Assembly: GCA_030691865.1 (NCBI GenBank)
Contig: JAUYDL010000017.1
Span: 8,312-32,311 of the forward strand
Direction of reading: 5' to 3'
DNA length: 24,000 nucleotides
From: Candidatus Omnitrophota bacterium
GTDB lineage: Bacteria > Omnitrophota > Gorgyraeia > Gygaellales > Profunditerraquicolaceae
A program made the translations under genes and the position numbers. The first letter of the stretch is position 1, and each line of letters starts with the position of its first letter. The notes below the pieces were generated by a model. The model was not told the DNA's origin and searched no databases. It saw only the letters and a list, made by a program, of their open reading frames with translations. Positions 9,894-22,101 of this stretch are shown piece after piece.

Positions 9894-9898
9894 ATAAG

Positions 9899-9979
9899 TG
9901 CGGGAGGAGGGAGTTGAACCCTCAAGGGTTACCCCACACGCTTCTGAGACGTGCGCGTCTGCCATTCCGCCACCCCCGC
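9899..9979 (-). tRNA. tRNA-Leu(CAG), type II with long variable arm
   Basis: The reverse complement folds as GCGGGGG-UG-GCG-GAAUGGCAGA-CGC-G-CACGU-CUCAGAA-GCGUG-UGGGGUAACCCUU-GAGGG-UUCAACU-CCCUC-CUCCCGC-A. The anticodon is CAG. No CCA is encoded. Confidence 0.9.
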
Positions 9980-11572: not shown

Positions 11573-11978
11573 GGGGGTGAAAGGGTTCGACTTAAGATAT
11601 GTCGGATAAGAGCAGCATGCCGCGGATGTAAGGTTAGCCGCGTTAACAACCCTTACACAATTTAAACGCAAACACGCAAGTGTCACGTTTAGGAACATTA
11701 GTTGCGCCGTCTTTTGCGGCTAGACCAATGTTCGTACCAGCCTTCGGACTTAATTAAGTCCGAAGCCCCTAACTGTCCTGCCTACGGGATAGATTAGGGC
11801 ACTAGTAGGATAGTCCCGGCGGTTAACCTTCCAAACCGGGGCGAAATCGAAAAGGCTGCGCTTTGCAAATCCTGCCGGGTAGGAGTTGCAGGGCTAAGAA
11901 TAAATTACCAGGCTAAGCATGTAGCGGCTTTTATGCGATTACTTAAGGACTCCGGTCCAATTCCGGACACCTCCACCA
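11573..11978 (+). ncRNA. ssrA: tmRNA (SsrA)
   Basis: The 5' end GGGGGUGAAAGGGUUCGAC and the 3' end GGACUCCGGUCCAAUUCCGGACACCUCCACCA form a tRNA-Ala-like acceptor with a G3.U70 pair and an encoded CCA. The conserved GCAUGCCG block is present. The candidate tag ORF at 11668-11724 reads GCA AAC ACG ... GCG GCU UAG = ANTQVSRLGTLVAPSFAA. Confidence 0.9.
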
Positions 11979-18047: not shown

Positions 18048-18679
18048 TGAAGCAGCTGGTAGTGGCTACAAAAAATAAAAAAAAGTTATCCGAGATAAAA
18101 GATATTTTAAAAGGCATGAATTTAAAGCTGCTTTCGCTGGATGCCTATAAAGATGTTCCGCAGGTGCTTGAAAATGGCAAAACTTTTCAGGAAAATGCCA
18201 TAAAAAAAGCGGTAACGTTGGCGCGTTTTACCGGTGAGCTTTGCTTGGGTGAGGATTCAGGGCTATGCGTTGATGTTTTAAGTGGTGAGCCGGGGATTTA
18301 TTCGGCGCGTTTCTCAGGCAGGCCTGCCTGCCGGTCAAGCAGGAATAAGAGTGATATTAAGAATAATCTTAAGCTATTGAGATTATTAAAAGATGTGCCT
18401 GCGGCAGAAAGAAAGGCGTATTATGTTTGCGCCGTGGCTTTGGCTGATAAACGCGGGTTAATTGAAGTGGTGGAGGGGAATTGTTCCGGTTTGATTGCTT
18501 TTGAGCCTAAAGGCAGCGCAGGCTTTGGCTATGATCCGTTATTTTATATCCCTAAATATAAAAAGACCTTTGCTCAGCTTGGAGAAAAGATCAAGCATAA
18601 AATGAGCCACCGGTATCATGCTTTAAAAAAAGCCAAGCGGATTATCGAGAAATATATTGTTAAGAGTAAGTGCTGTTGA
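18047..18679 (+). CDS. rdgB: non-canonical purine NTP pyrophosphatase (RdgB/HAM1 family)
   Basis: VVATKNKKKLSEI, EDSGLCVDVLSGEPGIYSARF, GFGYDPLF and SHR match RdgB. The rph-rdgB adjacency is common. Confidence 0.85.
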   Translation: MKQLVVATKNKKKLSEIKDILKGMNLKLLSLDAYKDVPQVLENGKTFQENAIKKAVTLARFTGELCLGEDSGLCVDVLSGEPGIYSARFSGRPACRSSRNKSDIKNNLKLLRLLKDVPAAERKAYYVCAVALADKRGLIEVVEGNCSGLIAFEPKGSAGFGYDPLFYIPKYKKTFAQLGEKIKHKMSHRYHALKKAKRIIEKYIVKSKCC

Positions 18680-18710
18680 TATAATTAATATTTCGTTATA
18701 GATTACAAAA

Positions 18711-18801
18711 CGGGGCGTGGCTCAGCTTGGCTAGAGCGTCCGCCATTAAGGCGTTGGCGGACGCCCGCCAAAGTATTAGTGGCGGGCGCTTGCTTAGAAT
18801 T
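18711..18801 (+). pseudogene. tRNA-Pro 5'-half pseudo-copy carrying a 50-nt double-hairpin insertion
   Basis: CGGGGCGTGGCTCAGCTTGGCTAGAGCG (18711-18738) and GCTTGCTT (18788-18795) match positions 1-33 of the intact tRNA-Pro at 19048. Between them lie two tandem hairpins, GTCCGCC-N11-GGCGGAC and GCCCGCC-N11-GGCGGGC. There is no T arm and no 3' acceptor strand. Confidence 0.6.
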
Positions 18802-19044
18802 ATGTTTGTTTACGTATTAAGAAGCGAAAAAGATAAAAGTTTTTATATAGGTTCGACCAAGAACATAGAGCAGAGGCTTAATGACCATAATAGAGGTGAA
18901 AGCTTATCTACAAAGTCGAAAAGACCGTGGGTATTAGCTAGAGTTGAAGAATATGATAGTGGTTCTTTGGCGTTAAAACGTGAGAAGTTTCTGAAAAGTG
19001 CTAAAGGTAGGAGGATTTTAAGGAACCTGACCTCTTTTAAATAA
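18802..19044 (+). CDS. small GIY-YIG (URI domain, YhbQ-like) nuclease
   Basis: 80 aa from ATG 18802: MFVYVLRSEKDKSFYIGSTKNIEQRLNDHN... This contains the GIY-YIG signature (YVL ... YIG), a conserved Arg and a downstream Glu (LKREKFLK). The longer track ORF from 18727 reads through the tRNA fragment and was rejected. Confidence 0.8.
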   Translation: MFVYVLRSEKDKSFYIGSTKNIEQRLNDHNRGESLSTKSKRPWVLARVEEYDSGSLALKREKFLKSAKGRRILRNLTSFK

Positions 19045-19047
19045 TTG

Positions 19048-19122
19048 CGGGGAGTGGCTCAGTTTGGCTAGAGCGCTTGCTTTGGGAGCAAGAGGTCGTG
19101 AGTTCAAATCTCACCTCCCCGA
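19048..19122 (+). tRNA. tRNA-Pro(UGG)
   Basis: CGGGGAG-UG-GCUC-AGUUUGGCUA-GAGC-G-CUUGC-UUUGGGA-GCAAG-AGGUC-GUGAG-UUCAAAU-CUCAC-CUCCCCG-A. It has a full cloverleaf. No CCA is encoded. Confidence 0.9.
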
Positions 19123-19138
19123 CATTGAAAACTTATAT

Positions 19139-19316
19139 GCGCCTATAGCTCAAATTTAACGAGGCCACAACTTATGGAGCGATAGCGAACATAAGTTGTT
19201 GGCCGAGTTAATCCCGTCATCTGCAAGCGGTGCTTTGGCGTATCGCGCCAAAGTACCGCGAAGCGACTAGATGACGGGAGGATAGTTTAAGATAAGAGAT
19301 AACTTGACAATTTAAT
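19139..19316 (+). pseudogene. tRNA-Arg 5' fragment fused to a truncated copy of the group I intron 5' domain
   Basis: GCGCCTATAGCTCAAAT (19139-19155) matches tRNA-Arg positions 1-17. GAGGCCACAACTTA...TAAGTTGTTGGCCGAGTTAATCCCG (19161-19216) parallels 19357-19416 of the intact intron. A long hairpin follows (19213-19278). No catalytic core motifs are present. Confidence 0.5.
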
Positions 19317-19699
19317 GCGCCTGTAGCTCAAATGGATAGAGCACCTGCCTTTCAATGAGGCCACAACTTAGCGAGCGTAAGCGAGCTAAGTTGTCCGGCC
19401 GAATTGATCCCGAGCCTGCGCAGAAAATTTCGCAAGAAATTTTCAAGCGTTTAGGCAAGGGGCCAACATTGGGAGCCTTCATGGGGAAATTAACCTATGA
19501 AGTGCATGCTGCTAAATCGGTGGACGCCCTAAAGGGCAATACCGAGCTATCTGTAGAGTTTACAGAGAGTGTAGAGACTTTACACAGCAGGGCTGAAATG
19601 CCTAAGATAAAGTCCAGACCGCAACAAGTGTTTTTGGCCGGAGTAATCCGGTGCGGTAAGCTAAGCCGGTTGTTGGCCGTTCGATTCGGCCCAGGCGCA
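19317..19699 (+). tRNA. tRNA-Arg(UCU) interrupted by a group I intron between anticodon positions 34 and 35
   Basis: Exons 19317-19351 and 19661-19699 join to a 74-nt cloverleaf. The acceptor GCGCCUG/CAGGCGC has 7 of 7 pairs. The D arm is GCUC/GAGC and the T arm is GGCCG-UUCGAUU-CGGCC. The anticodon loop is CUUCUAA. The anticodon stem CCUGC/GCCGG has one U.C mismatch. Confidence 0.75.
19352..19660 (+). ncRNA. group I intron (IC3-like, tRNA-type), 309 nt, no recognisable endonuclease ORF
   Basis: The 5' exon ends in U, paired as U.G within a candidate P1 (GCCUU/GAGGC). The J3/4-P4-P5 region reads CUAAAUCGGUG...GCCC-UAAA-GGGC...ACCGAGC (19512-19547). The core motif GUGUAGAGACU (19569-19579), with downstream CCUAAG and AGUCC, is as I recall it in the Azoarcus tRNA-Ile and Anabaena tRNA-Leu introns. 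There is a GNRA-capped hairpin GAAAAUUUC-GCAA-GAAAUUUUC. The terminal nucleotide is G at 19660. Confidence 0.75.
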
Positions 19700-19735
19700 T
19701 TAAATTTATGAAAAAACTAGGCAAAATTTAATTTT

Positions 19736-20950
19736 ATGAAGGACTGGAAAAAATTATTTACTATAATTGCAACCGTAGTTATTATTTTTAGCCTGGTTTA
19801 CGTATTTCTTTTACTGGCAGTTAAAACTATAATTGCCAATAAAATTGAAAAGGCAACTGGGTTAAAAACAAGCATAAGCAAGCTCAGTATTCTGCCGCCG
19901 TTTAATATTGAAGCAAGGGGGTTTGAGATTGCCGGCTTGATAAAAGCAGATCGTGTTTATTTAGCGCCAAGCATCCGCAGCCTTTTATTCGGTAAGCTTG
20001 CTTTTAATAAAATAGTGATTGGTAGCCCGGAAGTTACTTATCAGCGTAATCCTCCGGTTGAGCCGGTTAAGGATAGCCGCGCTCCGGTTGTAGAAAGTCA
20101 AAGTGAACCGGTTGCTCCCATTACTACGCAGAATAAGAGCCTTCCTGTAATTATAAAAAGTTTAAAAGTTTATTCCGGCAGATTAAATTTTATCGATACA
20201 ACGGCAGCTAGCGGGAAAATAAGCGTTATAATTAAGGATATAGATTTCTATATTACCAATCTATCTACCTTCGGCACAAAAGGCGTAAGTAATTTTGATT
20301 TAAAGGGTAATTTATCCTGGAATACCGGCGAGCCTAATGGTAAAATCTTGCTGCAAGGTTGGGTGGATTTTTACAAAAAAGATATGCTGGCTACTTTGAA
20401 AATTGAAAATATTGACGCCATTCTCTTTTATCCTTATTATTCAACCTGGGTGAATCTTGAGAAGGCACGCATCCAGAAAGCTAATCTTAATTTTAATTGT
20501 GATATCAAAGGTGTAAATAACGATGTATCTGCGGATTGTCATTTAGAGTTAGCAAACATGGTGCGTAAAGTACGCTTGCTTGAAGAGCCGCAGCAGAAAG
20601 CAGAGAAGATTACCGATGCAGTGCTGGATATGCTTAAATCCATGGATCAGGGCAAGGTGGTTTTAGATTTTGTCTTGCATACAAAAATGGACCGGCCGGA
20701 ATTTGGTTTTGCCAATATCAAATCGGCATTTGAGGGTAAGCTGATGCAGGCCAGAACCAGTGCTGGGCTAAGGCCTCAAGATATGTTATTATGGCCGGGT
20801 AGAATGCTGCAGGGCGGAATTAAAAGCGGCACAGATCTGTCTAATGCCATAATTGACGGCATATTTGATTTAAGTAACGGTATAAAGAAGTTTTTTGAAG
20901 ACAGGATGAATAGTCCGGTTCCTACTCAGGAAAATCAGTCTTCTTTCTAA
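19736..20950 (+). CDS. membrane-anchored AsmA-like / DUF748-like protein
   Basis: 404 aa ORF with an N-terminal TM anchor (LFTIIATVVIIFSLVYVFLLLAV) followed by a repetitive beta-rich region resembling the AsmA/DUF748 family. No catalytic motifs are present. The assignment is tentative. Confidence 0.5.
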   Translation: MKDWKKLFTIIATVVIIFSLVYVFLLLAVKTIIANKIEKATGLKTSISKLSILPPFNIEARGFEIAGLIKADRVYLAPSIRSLLFGKLAFNKIVIGSPEVTYQRNPPVEPVKDSRAPVVESQSEPVAPITTQNKSLPVIIKSLKVYSGRLNFIDTTAASGKISVIIKDIDFYITNLSTFGTKGVSNFDLKGNLSWNTGEPNGKILLQGWVDFYKKDMLATLKIENIDAILFYPYYSTWVNLEKARIQKANLNFNCDIKGVNNDVSADCHLELANMVRKVRLLEEPQQKAEKITDAVLDMLKSMDQGKVVLDFVLHTKMDRPEFGFANIKSAFEGKLMQARTSAGLRPQDMLLWPGRMLQGGIKSGTDLSNAIIDGIFDLSNGIKKFFEDRMNSPVPTQENQSSF

Positions 20951-20956
20951 ATTTAT

Positions 20957-21014
20957 GGTGGCTGTAGCTCAATTGCCTACCTGTAAGACAGGGGGTAGAG
21001 CGTCAGATTGTGGA
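20957..21014 (+). pseudogene. tRNA-His 5'-half pseudo-copy with a hairpin insertion in the D loop
   Basis: GGTGGCTGTAGCTCAATTG[cctacctgtaagacagggg]GTAGAGCGTCAGATTGTGGA compares with the intact GGTGGCTATAGCTCAATTGGTTAGAGCTTCTGACTGTGGC. It retains G-1 and the GTG anticodon. It lacks the 3' anticodon strand, the T arm and the 3' acceptor strand. Confidence 0.6.
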
Positions 21015-21027
21015 CTAGTTCATCGTA

Positions 21028-21056
21028 TTGACATTTTTATCGTTCTTTGATATAAT
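21028..21056 (+). promoter_or_regulatory. perfect consensus sigma70 promoter TTGACA-N17-TATAAT driving the HNH ORF (and probably tRNA-His)
   Basis: TTGACA at 21028-21033, a 17-nt spacer, and TATAAT at 21051-21056. The ATG at 21063 is 6 nt after the -10 element and has no SD, which implies a leaderless transcript. Confidence 0.6.
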
Positions 21057-21062
21057 TTCACT

Positions 21063-21521
21063 ATGCCGAATCAAAAATGTAAAATTTGCGGTAGTGAATT
21101 TTATATAAAACCTTTTCACGCGAAAAAAGGTTGGGGTAAATATTGTTCTATAAAATGCCGCTCTAAAGCTCAGCGAAACGGGAAATGGGTAAAATGTGTT
21201 AATTGCGGTAAAAAGATTTATAGAACTCCACGTGATTATAGAAAATCAGGAAGCAAAAGATTCTTTTGTTCGGTAAGTTGTCATTGTTCTTGGGAAAATA
21301 AAAATGTTCGTTGTGGTGTTAATTCTCCGAATTGGATAGTAGGGGAAGCCGCTTATCGTGATTTAATGCGTAGACATAAAATACCGTTTAAATGTAATAA
21401 GTGCGGTATTTCTGATAAGCGGGTACTCATAGTCCATCATAAAAATGGAAATCGAAAGAGTAATAATATTGAAAATTTAGAACGGCTTTGTTGTAATTGC
21501 CATGCCATTGCGCATGTGTAA
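21063..21521 (+). CDS. HNH endonuclease with N-terminal zinc-ribbon repeats
   Basis: 152 aa ORF. The repeated CxxC...CxxC units (CKICG...CSIKC; CVNCG...CSVSC; CNKCG) and the C-terminal HNH motif VHHKNGNRKSNNIENLERLCCNCHAIAH are present. Confidence 0.8.
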   Translation: MPNQKCKICGSEFYIKPFHAKKGWGKYCSIKCRSKAQRNGKWVKCVNCGKKIYRTPRDYRKSGSKRFFCSVSCHCSWENKNVRCGVNSPNWIVGEAAYRDLMRRHKIPFKCNKCGISDKRVLIVHHKNGNRKSNNIENLERLCCNCHAIAHV

Positions 21522-21528
21522 TAGATAT

Positions 21529-21604
21529 GGTGGCTATAGCTCAATTGGTTAGAGCTTCTGACTGTGGCTCAGAAGGTTTGCGGGTTCGATCCCCGTTAGC
21601 CACC
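21529..21604 (+). tRNA. tRNA-His(GUG) with encoded G-1
   Basis: G-GUGGCUA-UA-GCUC-AAUUGGUUA-GAGC-U-UCUGA-CUGUGGC-UCAGA-AGGUU-UGCGG-GUUCGAU-CCCCG(U)-UAGCCAC-C. G-1 pairs with C73, as is characteristic of bacterial tRNA-His. Confidence 0.9.
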
Positions 21605-21631
21605 CTAAATTATTGCAGTGCAATGAGTTAC

Positions 21632-21671
21632 AACAAATCACCAATAGGTAAACCTACTGGTGATTTGTTTT
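21632..21671 (+). terminator. rho-independent terminator after tRNA-His
   Basis: 12-bp stem AACAAATCACCA / TGGTGATTTGTT (21632-21643 / 21658-21669) with an inner TAGGT/ACCTA extension, followed by TTTTG. Confidence 0.7.
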
Positions 21672-21821
21672 GCGTGGGAGGAGGAAGGGTTTTTATTTAC
21701 CTGTATGCAGAGAGTCCTTCGGCCGCGCCATTAGTGAATGGGCGAAAATTGAGAAGTTAGCCTCGGCCAAAGGCAAGGCCTACAAAAGCGCTAAAAGAGC
21801 CAAAAAGCATATTGAGGCATT

Positions 21822-22101
21822 ATGAAATTTGAATTTAAATCTTCTTTTGACCGGTCGGTGAAGAGTTTTCATGGAAGAGAAAAAGAAGAGATAAAGAAAA
21901 TTGCTCTCCAAGCGATAGATGTACTCTCTTTAGGACCGAATGCTCCATAAGGGGATTGGTCTGAAGCGTCTTAATGGTGATTTCTGGGAGATAAGACACG
22001 GCCTTAAGGCAAGAATTCTATTCCGTTGGGAAGGAAATTTAGTGGAATTTATTCTTGCCGGTGACCACAATGATATAAAACGTTTCCTAAAGAATATTTA
22101 A
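21822..22101 (+). pseudogene. RelE/ParE-superfamily toxin gene disrupted by a frameshift
   Basis: Frame 0 reads MKFEFKSSFDRSVKSFHGREKEEIKKIALQAIDVLSLGPNAP and stops at 21948-21950. Frame +1 continues KGIGLKRLNGDFWEIRHGLKARILFRWEGNLVEFILAGDHNDIKRFLKNI to the stop at 22099-22101. Together these give a typical RelE/ParE-like toxin of about 92 aa. Confidence 0.65.

Follow-up and report, generated by a model that had tools for sequence, protein, structure and literature searches.

Nuclease genes between a tRNA 5′ fragment and a complete tRNA gene in an Omnitrophota chromosome: candidate homing cassettes

Homing endonuclease genes are assumed to depend on a self-splicing intron or intein for a place to reside, or else on a harmless site between genes. 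Group I introns are found in the anticodon loops of bacterial tRNA genes, namely cyanobacterial tRNA-Leu and tRNA-fMet, Azoarcus tRNA-Ile and Agrobacterium tRNA-Arg, and I-Ssp6803I is a homing endonuclease of the PD-(D/E)XK type. In synthetic Cleave and Rescue (ClvR) gene drives, a nuclease directed against an essential gene is coupled with a working copy of its target. Among T4-like phages, intron-less homing has been described for free-standing endonucleases, including SegB in the T4 tRNA cluster (PMC2330249, PMC2988022, PMC3984707), and tandem amplification of tRNA-Tyr plus segB is driven by SegB (PMC13096335). In fungal mitochondria, mobile open reading frames (mORFs) carry a replacement gene end, as in atp6 of Allomyces macrogynus and atp6, atp9, cox2 and nad3 of Glomus (PMC3630166). 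Here, in a 24,000-nucleotide (nt) stretch from a Candidatus Omnitrophota bacterium (assembly GCA_030691865.1, contig JAUYDL010000017.1; the whole stretch is referred to as the window), a set of tRNA-Pro, tRNA-Arg and tRNA-His genes was found in which a GIY-YIG and an HNH nuclease gene each stand between a 5′ fragment of a tRNA gene and a complete copy of that gene. No prior description of half-tRNA/nuclease/tRNA units in bacteria was found in the searchable literature; the principle itself has precedents in organelles and, as a mirror image, in islands that carry an integrase.

Both nuclease cassettes consist of a resident tRNA 5′ piece, a nuclease gene and a complete functional tRNA gene. The reading that we favour, with moderate confidence, is that they are homing cassettes in which tRNA repeats act as portable homology arms and a replacement tRNA is supplied. 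The anatomy of the units, their recurrence, their presence or absence at the site, their constant junctions and the purifying selection on their nucleases were observed directly. A sequence-only reading of the window had pointed to three half-tRNA layouts; all three lie where it placed them and are not chance resemblances (E = 1.3e-6 for Pro; 0 of 100 shuffles for Arg), and for each 5′ fragment the score with its own downstream tRNA is far above those with the window's other tRNAs. Its view that every break maps to the anticodon loop holds for the Pro and His fragments and for the intron of the intact tRNA-Arg gene, but not for the Arg fragment, which breaks in the D loop at 17/18. The tRNA-Leu gene at 9898–9979 has ordinary surroundings, and the half-tRNA layout is therefore not general to the tRNA genes of this genome.

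The order RdgB / tRNA-Pro(UGG) / tRNA-Arg(UCU) / DUF748 / tRNA-His(GUG) was conserved and syntenic in about 38 Omnitrophota loci, as mapped with ARAGORN and open reading frames (ORFs). An alignment of 18 orthologues of the DUF748 gene (19736–20950) retrieved 40 loci from species-representative genomes (loci are given below by their L numbers); DUF748 orthologues number in the hundreds, with identities grading from 89% down to 35%. One protein from an Omnitrophota metagenome-assembled genome is 100% identical to the window's DUF748 protein; for the window's RdgB, no exact match turned up. Compact loci (L014, L010, L002 and L024) have element-free spacers of 7–35 nt, in order about 20, 12, 7–27 and 10–30 nt, and filled forms are longer than these by 350–600 nt; in other loci, insertions of 100–2700 nt occur in each of the four spacers. 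With compact and insertion-bearing loci in one synteny, empty and filled orthologous sites are therefore both available, and the comparison with related genomes that the sequence-only reading had proposed showed nuclease ORFs to be present in some syntenic loci and absent from others. The HNH gene was found in 8 of about 34 syntenic loci and a close GIY-YIG gene in 4, the distribution being patchy even among close relatives: L001 has the HNH gene, L002 and L003 are without it, and L002 is also without the GIY-YIG gene. The locus is a hot spot for selfish elements residing in tRNA genes.

The tRNA-His cassette comprises the following features.

20957–21013, + strand: tRNA-His 5′ fragment, from G-1 to G37, behind the native leader AAATTTAT
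21028–21056, + strand: sigma-70 promoter TTGACA-17-TATAAT with TG extension, matching the consensus at 12/12 positions
21063–21521, + strand: HNH gene of 152 amino acids (aa), with two FCS/MYM-like zinc fingers and a C-terminal HNH domain (Pfam HNH_3)
21529–21605, + strand: intact tRNA-His(GUG) with G-1 and a 5-nt variable loop (GGTTT) (ARAGORN and Rfam; call at 21530–21605, G-1 at 21529)

The fragment runs from G-1 into the anticodon loop, as had been recognised from the sequence, and carries an 18-nt hairpin insert in the D loop (20976–20993); with the insert removed, it is identical to tRNA-His at 35 of 39 positions. The consensus promoter noticed earlier before the HNH gene was likewise confirmed. 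The fragment end lies 49 nt from the HNH start, and the HNH stop codon 7 nt 5′ of G-1 of the intact tRNA-His. Since the ATG at 21063 is located 7 nt after the -10 hexamer and lacks a Shine-Dalgarno sequence, the HNH mRNA is probably leaderless; several orthologues use GTG at this position. The predicted protein matched Pfam HNH_3 at 6e-5 with 23 bits, just below the curated cut-off of 24.8, and belongs to the HNH nucleases by fold and by the motif HHKNGN..N..NL..LC.NCH at residues 125–151. Its family includes 98 homologous clusters (48–95% identity), most of which match PF13392. An AlphaFold2 model (pLDDT 88) has two zinc-ribbon/finger modules and a C-terminal beta-beta-alpha unit, the C-terminus matching the Gme HNH nicking endonuclease 4h9d with a probability of 0.8–0.96; a Foldseek search with the model gave domain-level matches and no significant whole-protein match. 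Sequence matches to TAL effectors in the PDB were disregarded, no single stretch being above threshold. The dN/dS ratio of 0.06–0.21 indicates purifying selection. In phage and viral collections no close relatives of the HNH protein were found, the best sharing about 31% identity.

In the 8 syntenic HNH loci, the same succession was observed, that is, DUF748 stop, native leader, fragment ending in TGTG(G/A), about 20 nt, promoter, ORF and intact tRNA-His. The fragment ended at the same nucleotide, after TGTG(G/A) (G37), in all 13 HNH loci examined, and its distance to the start codon was 49–52 nt in 11 of the 13 tabulated, the exceptions being L046 (32 nt) and L028 (89 nt, caused by a truncated local alignment). 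The TTGACA-17-TATAAT promoter was present in 11 of 12 loci checked, with none found in L046. Between the HNH stop and the intact tRNA-His there were 5–11 nt in the seven Omnitrophota loci tabulated; in some others (L006, L059) the ORF runs up to or into the tRNA. The same unit recurs in at least five unrelated gene neighbourhoods: between GH94 and CorA genes in L041, after FTHFS and a tRNA cluster in L042, after PurA in L043, before glyoxalase/Fic in L046, and in L059 downstream of a DUF748-domain gene, with a PilZ-domain gene in between. A fragment-to-start spacing of about 50 nt was kept in four of these five. In L059, a Y1 (IS200/IS605-type) transposase gene (2157–2822) is located directly after the unit.

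Identities among the HNH proteins do not track those of RdgB or DUF748: L018 and L040 share 82% identity in HNH versus 42% in DUF748, and the window and L031 share 91% versus 64%. Presence or absence at a fixed site and a distribution incongruent with that of the host were both found in such identity comparisons across loci. The HNH clade of L018, L040 and L006 (76–82% identical) uniformly has the variable loop GGTTTTG, a six-base variable region found in no HNH-free locus, while the DUF748 proteins of these loci are 36–54% identical. The 4-nt variable loop GGTTG occurs in no HNH-bearing locus and in about 16 of 26 HNH-free loci (Fisher p about 0.003, uncorrected for phylogeny). The fragment of L017 has the same sequence as the native tRNA-His of the relatives L020 and L021, and the intact gene of L017 is a different allele; in L046, fragment and intact tRNA-His agree at 25 of 37 positions. 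The combination known from fungal mobile ORFs, a nuclease ORF with a replacement piece and a native fossil, is thus found at L017 and likewise at L046, which is a match in design and not a sign of common descent. The His fragments decay differently by lineage, with D-loop insertions in some and a 5′ truncation in L006.

Some further peculiarities of tRNA-His and its neighbours were observed. An allele with the T loop ATCGTTC (GCGGGATCGTTCCCCGT) instead of TTCGATC occurs in L001, L002, L003, L009, L015, L024, L028, L029, L031 and L039; T54/A58 are apparently swapped to A54/T58, which would retain the reverse-Hoogsteen pair. In L043 (3005–3080), the tRNA-His after an HNH gene of 48% identity has aberrant D and T arms and was not called by ARAGORN, and of the two the upstream tRNA-His fragment has the more canonical look. 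In L057 and L058 (1501–2000), a phage-like array of 12–13 tRNA genes contains a distant HNH (46% identity across one third of the query), and a tRNA 3′ fragment overlaps the end of its ORF.

The tRNA-Pro cassette and the promoter-like site upstream of it are as follows.

18657–18685, + strand: promoter-like site, TTGTTA-17-TATAAT with TG, at the end of rdgB
18711–18738, + strand: tRNA-Pro 5′ fragment, linear positions 1–28 (canonical 1–26), found by blastn-short
18739–18788, + strand: 50-nt double hairpin (family B, see below) inserted in the Pro fragment
18789–18795, + strand: CTTGCTT, equal to tRNA-Pro 29–35, the continuation of the fragment, ending in the anticodon loop
18802–19044, + strand: minimal GIY-YIG nuclease gene of 80 aa (Pfam PF01541)
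19048–19123, + strand: intact tRNA-Pro(UGG) (ARAGORN; Rfam, 69 bits)

Nucleotides 18711–18738 and 19048–19075 are identical at 26 of 28 positions (E = 1.3e-6, blastn-short within the window). The copy reaches the anticodon loop, as the sequence-only reading had it, but is not contiguous, positions 1–28 and 29–35 being separated by the 50-nt double hairpin (TCCGCCA-loop-TGGCGGA, CG, CCCGCCA-loop-TGGCGGG); in L052 the continuation is longer, up to CTTGCTTTGG. Six bases lie between CTTGCTT and the GIY-YIG ATG, and the GIY-YIG stop codon is located 3 nt 5′ of the intact tRNA-Pro, as had been noted. A motif identical to that of the window, TTGATATAAT, precedes tRNA-Pro in empty loci, and the site at 18657–18685 probably serves as native promoter to the tRNA operon and now precedes the Pro fragment and the GIY-YIG gene as well. 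The GIY-YIG gene would be transcribed from this operon promoter, and the HNH promoter is predicted to drive tRNA-His as well.

The GIY-YIG protein matched PF01541 at 1e-17 with 64.6 bits (cut-off 22.6), which identifies the catalytic domain, and consists of this bare domain, the nearest solved structures being UPF0213 (1ywl, 6e-5) and SLX1; TIGR01453 scored 26.9 bits, under its cut-off of 56. The modular architecture of I-TevI and Seg-type enzymes (catalytic domain, linker and DNA-binding domain, about 200–250 aa) was not found in this protein of only 80 aa, and the idea of an I-TevI-type homing enzyme gives way to that of a minimal UPF0213/SLX1-like domain. The dN/dS ratio of about 0.1 indicates purifying selection.

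Seven loci carry the cassette at tRNA-Pro(UGG), namely the window, L003, L012, L026, L048, L049 and L052, with a common build of tRNA-Pro 1–28, double hairpin, CTTGCTT(TGG), ORF and intact tRNA-Pro. A metagenome scan with a narrow GIY-YIG alignment gave only 7 loci. In L012 and L052, the 1–28 part is host-type and the hairpins and the CTTGC fossil are cassette-type, the host anticodon stem being CAGCG or CCTGC, unlike the fossil CTTGC after the hairpins. The hairpins, fossil and ORF therefore travel together and meet host DNA at position 28, a pattern that would be expected from a crossover inside the 28-nt arm. In L049, the second hairpin is kept through compensatory changes (AGCGCC/GGCGCT). 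A single long hairpin, the RNAalifold consensus for the 50-nt insert, was rejected, as the paired changes in L049 break it and keep the two-hairpin fold. Related GIY-YIG genes (36–64% identity) are likewise placed at tRNA-Pro(CGG) in L061 and at tRNA-His in L005 and L063, in each case preceded by a hairpin-interrupted 5′ fragment of the cognate tRNA.

The sequence-only reading had proposed that a cassette enters at the anticodon loop and brings a replacement 5′ half. This is well supported at tRNA-His, by the empty and filled sites, the fragment behind the native leader, the native fragment with a foreign gene in L017 and the constant junctions, and moderately at tRNA-Pro, by the fossil CTTGC stem unlike the host tRNA in L012 and L052; it needs amendment in that the whole intact tRNA often travels with the nuclease, as in the GGTTTTG clade in diverged hosts.

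Other arrangements were seen around GIY-YIG genes and tRNA-Pro. In L050 and L051 (1103–1520), a GIY-YIG ORF (56% identical) lies between two near-identical full copies of a tRNA-Gly(UCC)-like gene, which has an unusual T arm and was not called by ARAGORN. Inverted copies of the leader and the first tRNA-Pro bases (CCCCGTTGCA) occur upstream of the Pro fragment in L048 (1050–1110), L049 (1000–1110) and L012 (3760–3800), and could pair with the real leader and tRNA 5′ end as a long hairpin. L026 has a run of N within a tandem cassette pair.

Between these two cassettes, the tRNA-Arg region is organised differently.

19139–19155, + strand: tRNA-Arg 5′ fragment, positions 1–17, behind the native Pro–Arg spacer
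19156–19285, + strand: family A copy 1, starting with TTAACGAG and ending with GGGAGGATAG, after the 17-nt Arg fragment
19286–19316, + strand: duplicated leader/spacer (ending in AACTTGACAATTTAAT) before the intact tRNA-Arg, resembling the native Pro–Arg spacer of empty loci
19317–19351, + strand: tRNA-Arg(UCU) exon 1, positions 1–34, ending in CCTGCCTT (alignment with intron-less L010 and L014)
19352–19463, + strand: family A copy 2, the first approximately 112 nt of the intron, containing the GAGGC that pairs with the exon end
19464–19660, + strand: group I-like intron core, ORF-less, ending in G (comparison with minimal introns)
19661–19699, + strand: tRNA-Arg(UCU) exon 2, starting with CTAAGCCGG (alignment with intron-less L010 and L014)

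The fragment reported at 19139–19155 is identical to tRNA-Arg 1–17 at 16 of 17 positions, a match not seen in any of 100 shuffles, and equivalent fragments occur in L011, L013, L019 and L021. That the intact tRNA-Arg is interrupted by an intron also proved correct: the joins agree exactly with intron-less L010 and L014, and the joined exons (19317–19351 plus 19661–19699) were called tRNA-Arg(TCT) by ARAGORN. The intron (19352–19660, 309 nt) splits the anticodon loop at 34/35. Its last base is G, that of the 5′ exon is U, and a P1-like pairing is possible between GCCUU at the exon end and a GAGGC that lies six nt inside the intron. A call by ARAGORN in intron mode, tRNA-SeC(TCA) with a 295-nt intron, is spurious and was overruled by the junction from the intron-less alleles. 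The core shared 89–94% identity with the minimal introns of about 200 nt in L009, L015, L025 and L031. Rfam RF00028 (group I) gave no match in the window at the gathering threshold or at E ≤ 10, only tRNAs being found, and the intron call therefore rests on orthologue comparison; the minimal orthologue of L009, about 93% identical to the window core, matched RF00028 weakly (19.8 bits, E = 0.007, gathering score 50). On this comparative basis the insert is accepted as a putative group I-type intron, ORF-less here and outside formal membership of the Rfam model. Introns of L001, L006, L018, L022, L023, L027 and L028 contain an ORF of 151–153 aa, and that of L001, the one tested, matched the PD-(D/E)XK endonuclease family PF11645 (5e-28), to which I-Ssp6803I of the tRNA-fMet intron also belongs. 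The anticodon stem of tRNA-Arg(UCU), CCTGC/GCCGG (19344–19348 with 19666–19670 in the window), has a U29–C41 mismatch that is common to many orthologues, including intron-less L010; in L014 the stem is perfect.

The copy of the intron start that had been noticed upstream is real as a similarity (19158–19216 versus 19354–19412, 82% identical, E about 1e-8), but belongs to a separate repeat, family A, copies of which stand after the Arg fragment and at the intron 5′ end and therefore give the impression of a copied intron. As an intron module, family A is absent from the minimal introns of L009, L015, L025 and L031 and was found in L026 only, with compensatory changes. It also occurs after a 17–18-nt tRNA-Arg fragment before intron-less tRNA-Arg (L011, L013, L019, L021), after a 17-nt tRNA-His fragment before tRNA-His (L012, L029, L019) and directly 3′ of tRNA-Pro (L005, L019, L021, L022, L027). 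Its length is about 110–135 nt, in the order TTTAAYGAG, stem, hairpin AACTTAYGG..TAAGTT, stem, GAATTAATCCCG, variable hairpin and CGGGAGGATAG; of 17 pairs predicted in the 5′ domain, 10 show compensatory changes among 15 aligned copies. Within the DNA examined, including L005, L011–L013, L019, L021, L022, L026, L027 and L029, it was seen solely in tRNA spacers, and Rfam gave no match for it. Where family A lies inside tRNA sequence, a dead 5′ fragment always precedes it and the duplicated leader and complete gene follow. Family A is thus an independent structured element, and the 17-nt Arg fragment is part of an ORF-less layout of tRNA 1–17, family A, duplicated leader and tRNA. The explanation of the Arg fragment as a scar of intron homing, with family A as an intron 5′ part copied imperfectly, was rejected: minimal introns are without it, and it flanks intron-less tRNA-Arg and tRNA-His.

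Family B comprises double hairpins rich in GC (TCCGCC..GGCGGA, CCCGCC..GGCGGG), for which the insertion points within dead tRNA fragments are 28/29 in Pro, 12/13 in His and 12/13 in Arg. Copies are located at the following positions.

Window, 18739–18788: family B
L005, 5756–5797: family B
L008, 4030–4071: family B
L002, 4323–4385: family B
L001, 379–420: family B

The copy in L001 is about 3 kb upstream of its tRNA-Pro, and the family may therefore be REP-like (repetitive extragenic palindromic) and not confined to tRNA fragments. A mirror layout, not present in the window, was observed 3′ of tRNA-Arg in 13 loci, in which an element of about 70 nt is followed by a duplicate of tRNA-Arg 61–76 (L010 4394–4482, also L004, L006, L007, L008, L011, L013, L019, L022, L023 and L029; 55–76 in L008).

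Elsewhere in the window, a tmRNA gene unrelated to the cassettes is located at 11573–11978 (Rfam, 157.6 bits). Downstream of tRNA-His, a long hairpin followed by T residues (21612–21672) is probably a terminator, and two small ORFs at 21670–22101 (51 aa and about 90 aa, the latter maybe interrupted) have a toxin-antitoxin-like look; Pfam gave no match on the pieces of them that were tested.

For cleavage, the repair route and the direction of transfer, we infer the following course. The nuclease would break a cassette-free copy of the same tRNA gene, and the cassette-bearing copy would serve as the repair template, homology being provided on the left by the tRNA 5′ piece and on the right by the complete tRNA. 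With arms of tRNA sequence on both sides, the cassette could enter the same tRNA gene of any genome, whatever its flanks; and since a replacement tRNA, whole or 5′, comes with it, no splicing would be needed to keep the essential gene functional. The recipient's own 5′ part would remain as a fossil, decay and gather small hairpin insertions. Such nuclease-driven recombinational spread would lead to occupation of the same tRNA gene irrespective of the flanking genes, to fragments whose distal part is host-type and which are cassette-type from the first non-homologous base on, to intact tRNA alleles that often follow the nuclease by co-conversion, and to decay of the abandoned fragments. Compact sites, and units that have no ORF (a fragment with family A or B), may represent stages of degeneration or loss in this homing cycle. 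The data fit a homing-type spread of the intron-less kind (PMC3984707), and the layout probably lets an element invade an essential gene without killing it. Scars of imprecise repair, offered in the sequence-only reading as an alternative, may explain the origin of the first cassette but not the precise, conserved junctions.

Several points weigh against homing. The intact tRNA-Pro of the window is identical to that of cassette-free L002 despite the cassette, and for the escape of tRNA-His from cutting there is only the correlation with variable-loop length. Sequence-specific homing by the GIY-YIG protein alone is doubtful, since it has 80 aa, is UPF0213/SLX1-like and is without a DNA-binding domain. 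In L012, L048 and L052, host-type sequence is found both in the fragment and in the 5′ portion of the intact tRNA-Pro, which one-step repair from a foreign donor does not predict; gene conversion at a later time, selection, or a transfer among near-identical genomes has to be assumed. Strong purifying selection over dS > 1 might also reflect a function useful to the host, and the apparent incongruence is drawn from identity comparisons and not from formal phylogenetic reconciliation.

One alternative is integration at the tRNA repeat as an att-like site, or else an insertion with target duplication. In the former, a circle excised between the tRNA repeats would re-integrate by a single crossover in the tRNA 5′ segment of another genome, and in the latter, staggered cuts at the tRNA 5′ end and at position 17–37 would give a long target duplication; the nuclease would do no more than stimulate the process. 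In its favour, every element has direct repeats on its two sides, L012, L048, L052, L003 and L026 have 28-nt copies that are host-type and 100% identical to each other, the Arg and His repeats take in 10–15 nt of leader (26-nt repeat in L029, likewise in L008, L011 and L002), and the mirror form in 13 loci, with tRNA-Arg 61–76 duplicated after the downstream element of about 70 nt, is also accommodated. We nevertheless hold this explanation unlikely: no integrase or transposase was found in or adjoining the cassettes, and no tyrosine or serine recombinase ORF between the repeats, the units being 0.15–0.6 kb. Moreover, fragment and intact tRNA-His are clearly different alleles in L017 and L046, so that a simple target duplication is impossible there, and target duplications of 26–40 nt are not known for HNH or GIY-YIG enzymes, which also counts against that version.

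An absence of mobility, with an old tandem tRNA duplication, insertion of a nuclease gene in the upstream copy, vertical descent and many losses, is compatible with the similar dS of the HNH (0.29) and DUF748 (0.35) genes between the window and L001, and loss through recombination of the repeats would be easy. It is quite improbable in view of the HNH/half-tRNA-His unit with identical junctions in at least five unrelated neighbourhoods, the HNH identities incongruent with those of host proteins (L018/L040, 82 versus 42%; window/L031, 91 versus 64%) and the cassette-borne fossil stems unlike the host tRNA. Much the same low probability is given to domestication, in which the tRNA-like leader, hairpins and nuclease would be functional operon parts kept for host benefit, the leader as a processing or regulatory signal and the nucleases for repair or defence. 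Strong purifying selection on both nucleases, hairpins conserved with compensatory changes, and an HNH promoter that would also drive the only tRNA-His copy at the locus speak for such a role, whereas the patchy distribution in close relatives (L001 versus L002 and L003), the lineage-specific decay of fragments (D-loop insertions; 5′ truncation in L006) and the compact loci, which work without any of these parts, speak against it. Chimeric joins at repeated tRNA sequence during assembly or binning of metagenome-assembled genomes could be suspected from the run of N inside the tandem cassette pair of L026, but junctions are alike base for base in independent NCBI, JGI, ENA and Logan assemblies from different samples, and an artefact is extremely improbable.

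If homing is accepted, the HNH/tRNA-His unit might further be a natural cleave-and-rescue element, an extension that we offer only tentatively and regard as doubtful. The HNH enzyme would cut the common short-variable-loop allele of the single essential tRNA-His, and the cassette would supply a cut-resistant tRNA-His from its own promoter, driving itself into naive genomes and being hard to lose. The GIY-YIG cassettes may act likewise, their enzyme recognising DNA structure, such as hairpins of tRNA genes, instead of sequence, as SLX1-type enzymes do, and family A could be a non-coding partner exploiting the same route.

Should the homing reading hold, two unrelated nuclease families would occupy the inside of essential single-copy bacterial tRNA genes by means of a replacement copy and tRNA homology, extending the mobile-ORF principle of fungal mitochondria to bacterial chromosomes and RNA genes. 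Orphan tRNA 5′ fragments, ignored by annotation pipelines, would be explained, tRNA alleles would be horizontally movable as passengers of nucleases, and a natural counterpart to nuclease-plus-rescue gene drives would be at hand, with compact nucleases (80 and 152 aa) and presumably very conserved targets.

The systems introduced at the outset resemble these units to varied degrees. Like the ClvR drives, in concept only, they join a nuclease to a linked functional copy, here of a tRNA, the resistance of that copy being hypothetical. The intron of tRNA-Arg(UCU), at 34/35, with minimal forms of about 200 nt and relatives encoding PF11645, is similar to known group I introns of bacterial tRNA genes; unlike these, the window copy is ORF-less, carries the 112-nt family A module at its 5′ end and stays below the Rfam threshold. 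Islands and prophages that integrate in tRNA genes also restore the tRNA with their own copy of the displaced part and have direct tRNA repeats at both ends; in these, the 3′ end is duplicated, a tyrosine integrase is needed and the element is kilobases long, whereas here the 5′ end is duplicated, no integrase was found and the units are 0.15–0.6 kb. With T4-like phages the locus shares GIY-YIG and HNH genes beside tRNA genes and, according to the homing likeness proposed here, the breakage of a nuclease-free allele followed by repair that would copy the nuclease gene and co-convert its flanks; the phage enzymes differ in having 200–250 aa with DNA-binding domains, in needing homologous flanking genes and in showing no half-tRNA repeat. 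The fungal mORFs are similar in that a free-standing LAGLIDADG or GIY-YIG ORF moves with a partial copy of the host gene and a functional hybrid is restored (PMC3630166), the displaced native part, which agrees with that of close relatives, staying alongside as an unexpressed fossil and the inserted part being of foreign origin. They concern protein-coding organelle genes, replace the 3′ (C-terminal) end and have the fossil on the downstream side; the present units, in contrast, occupy bacterial chromosomal tRNA genes, supply the 5′ part or the whole tRNA, leave the fossil upstream and, in the case of the HNH gene, have a promoter of their own.

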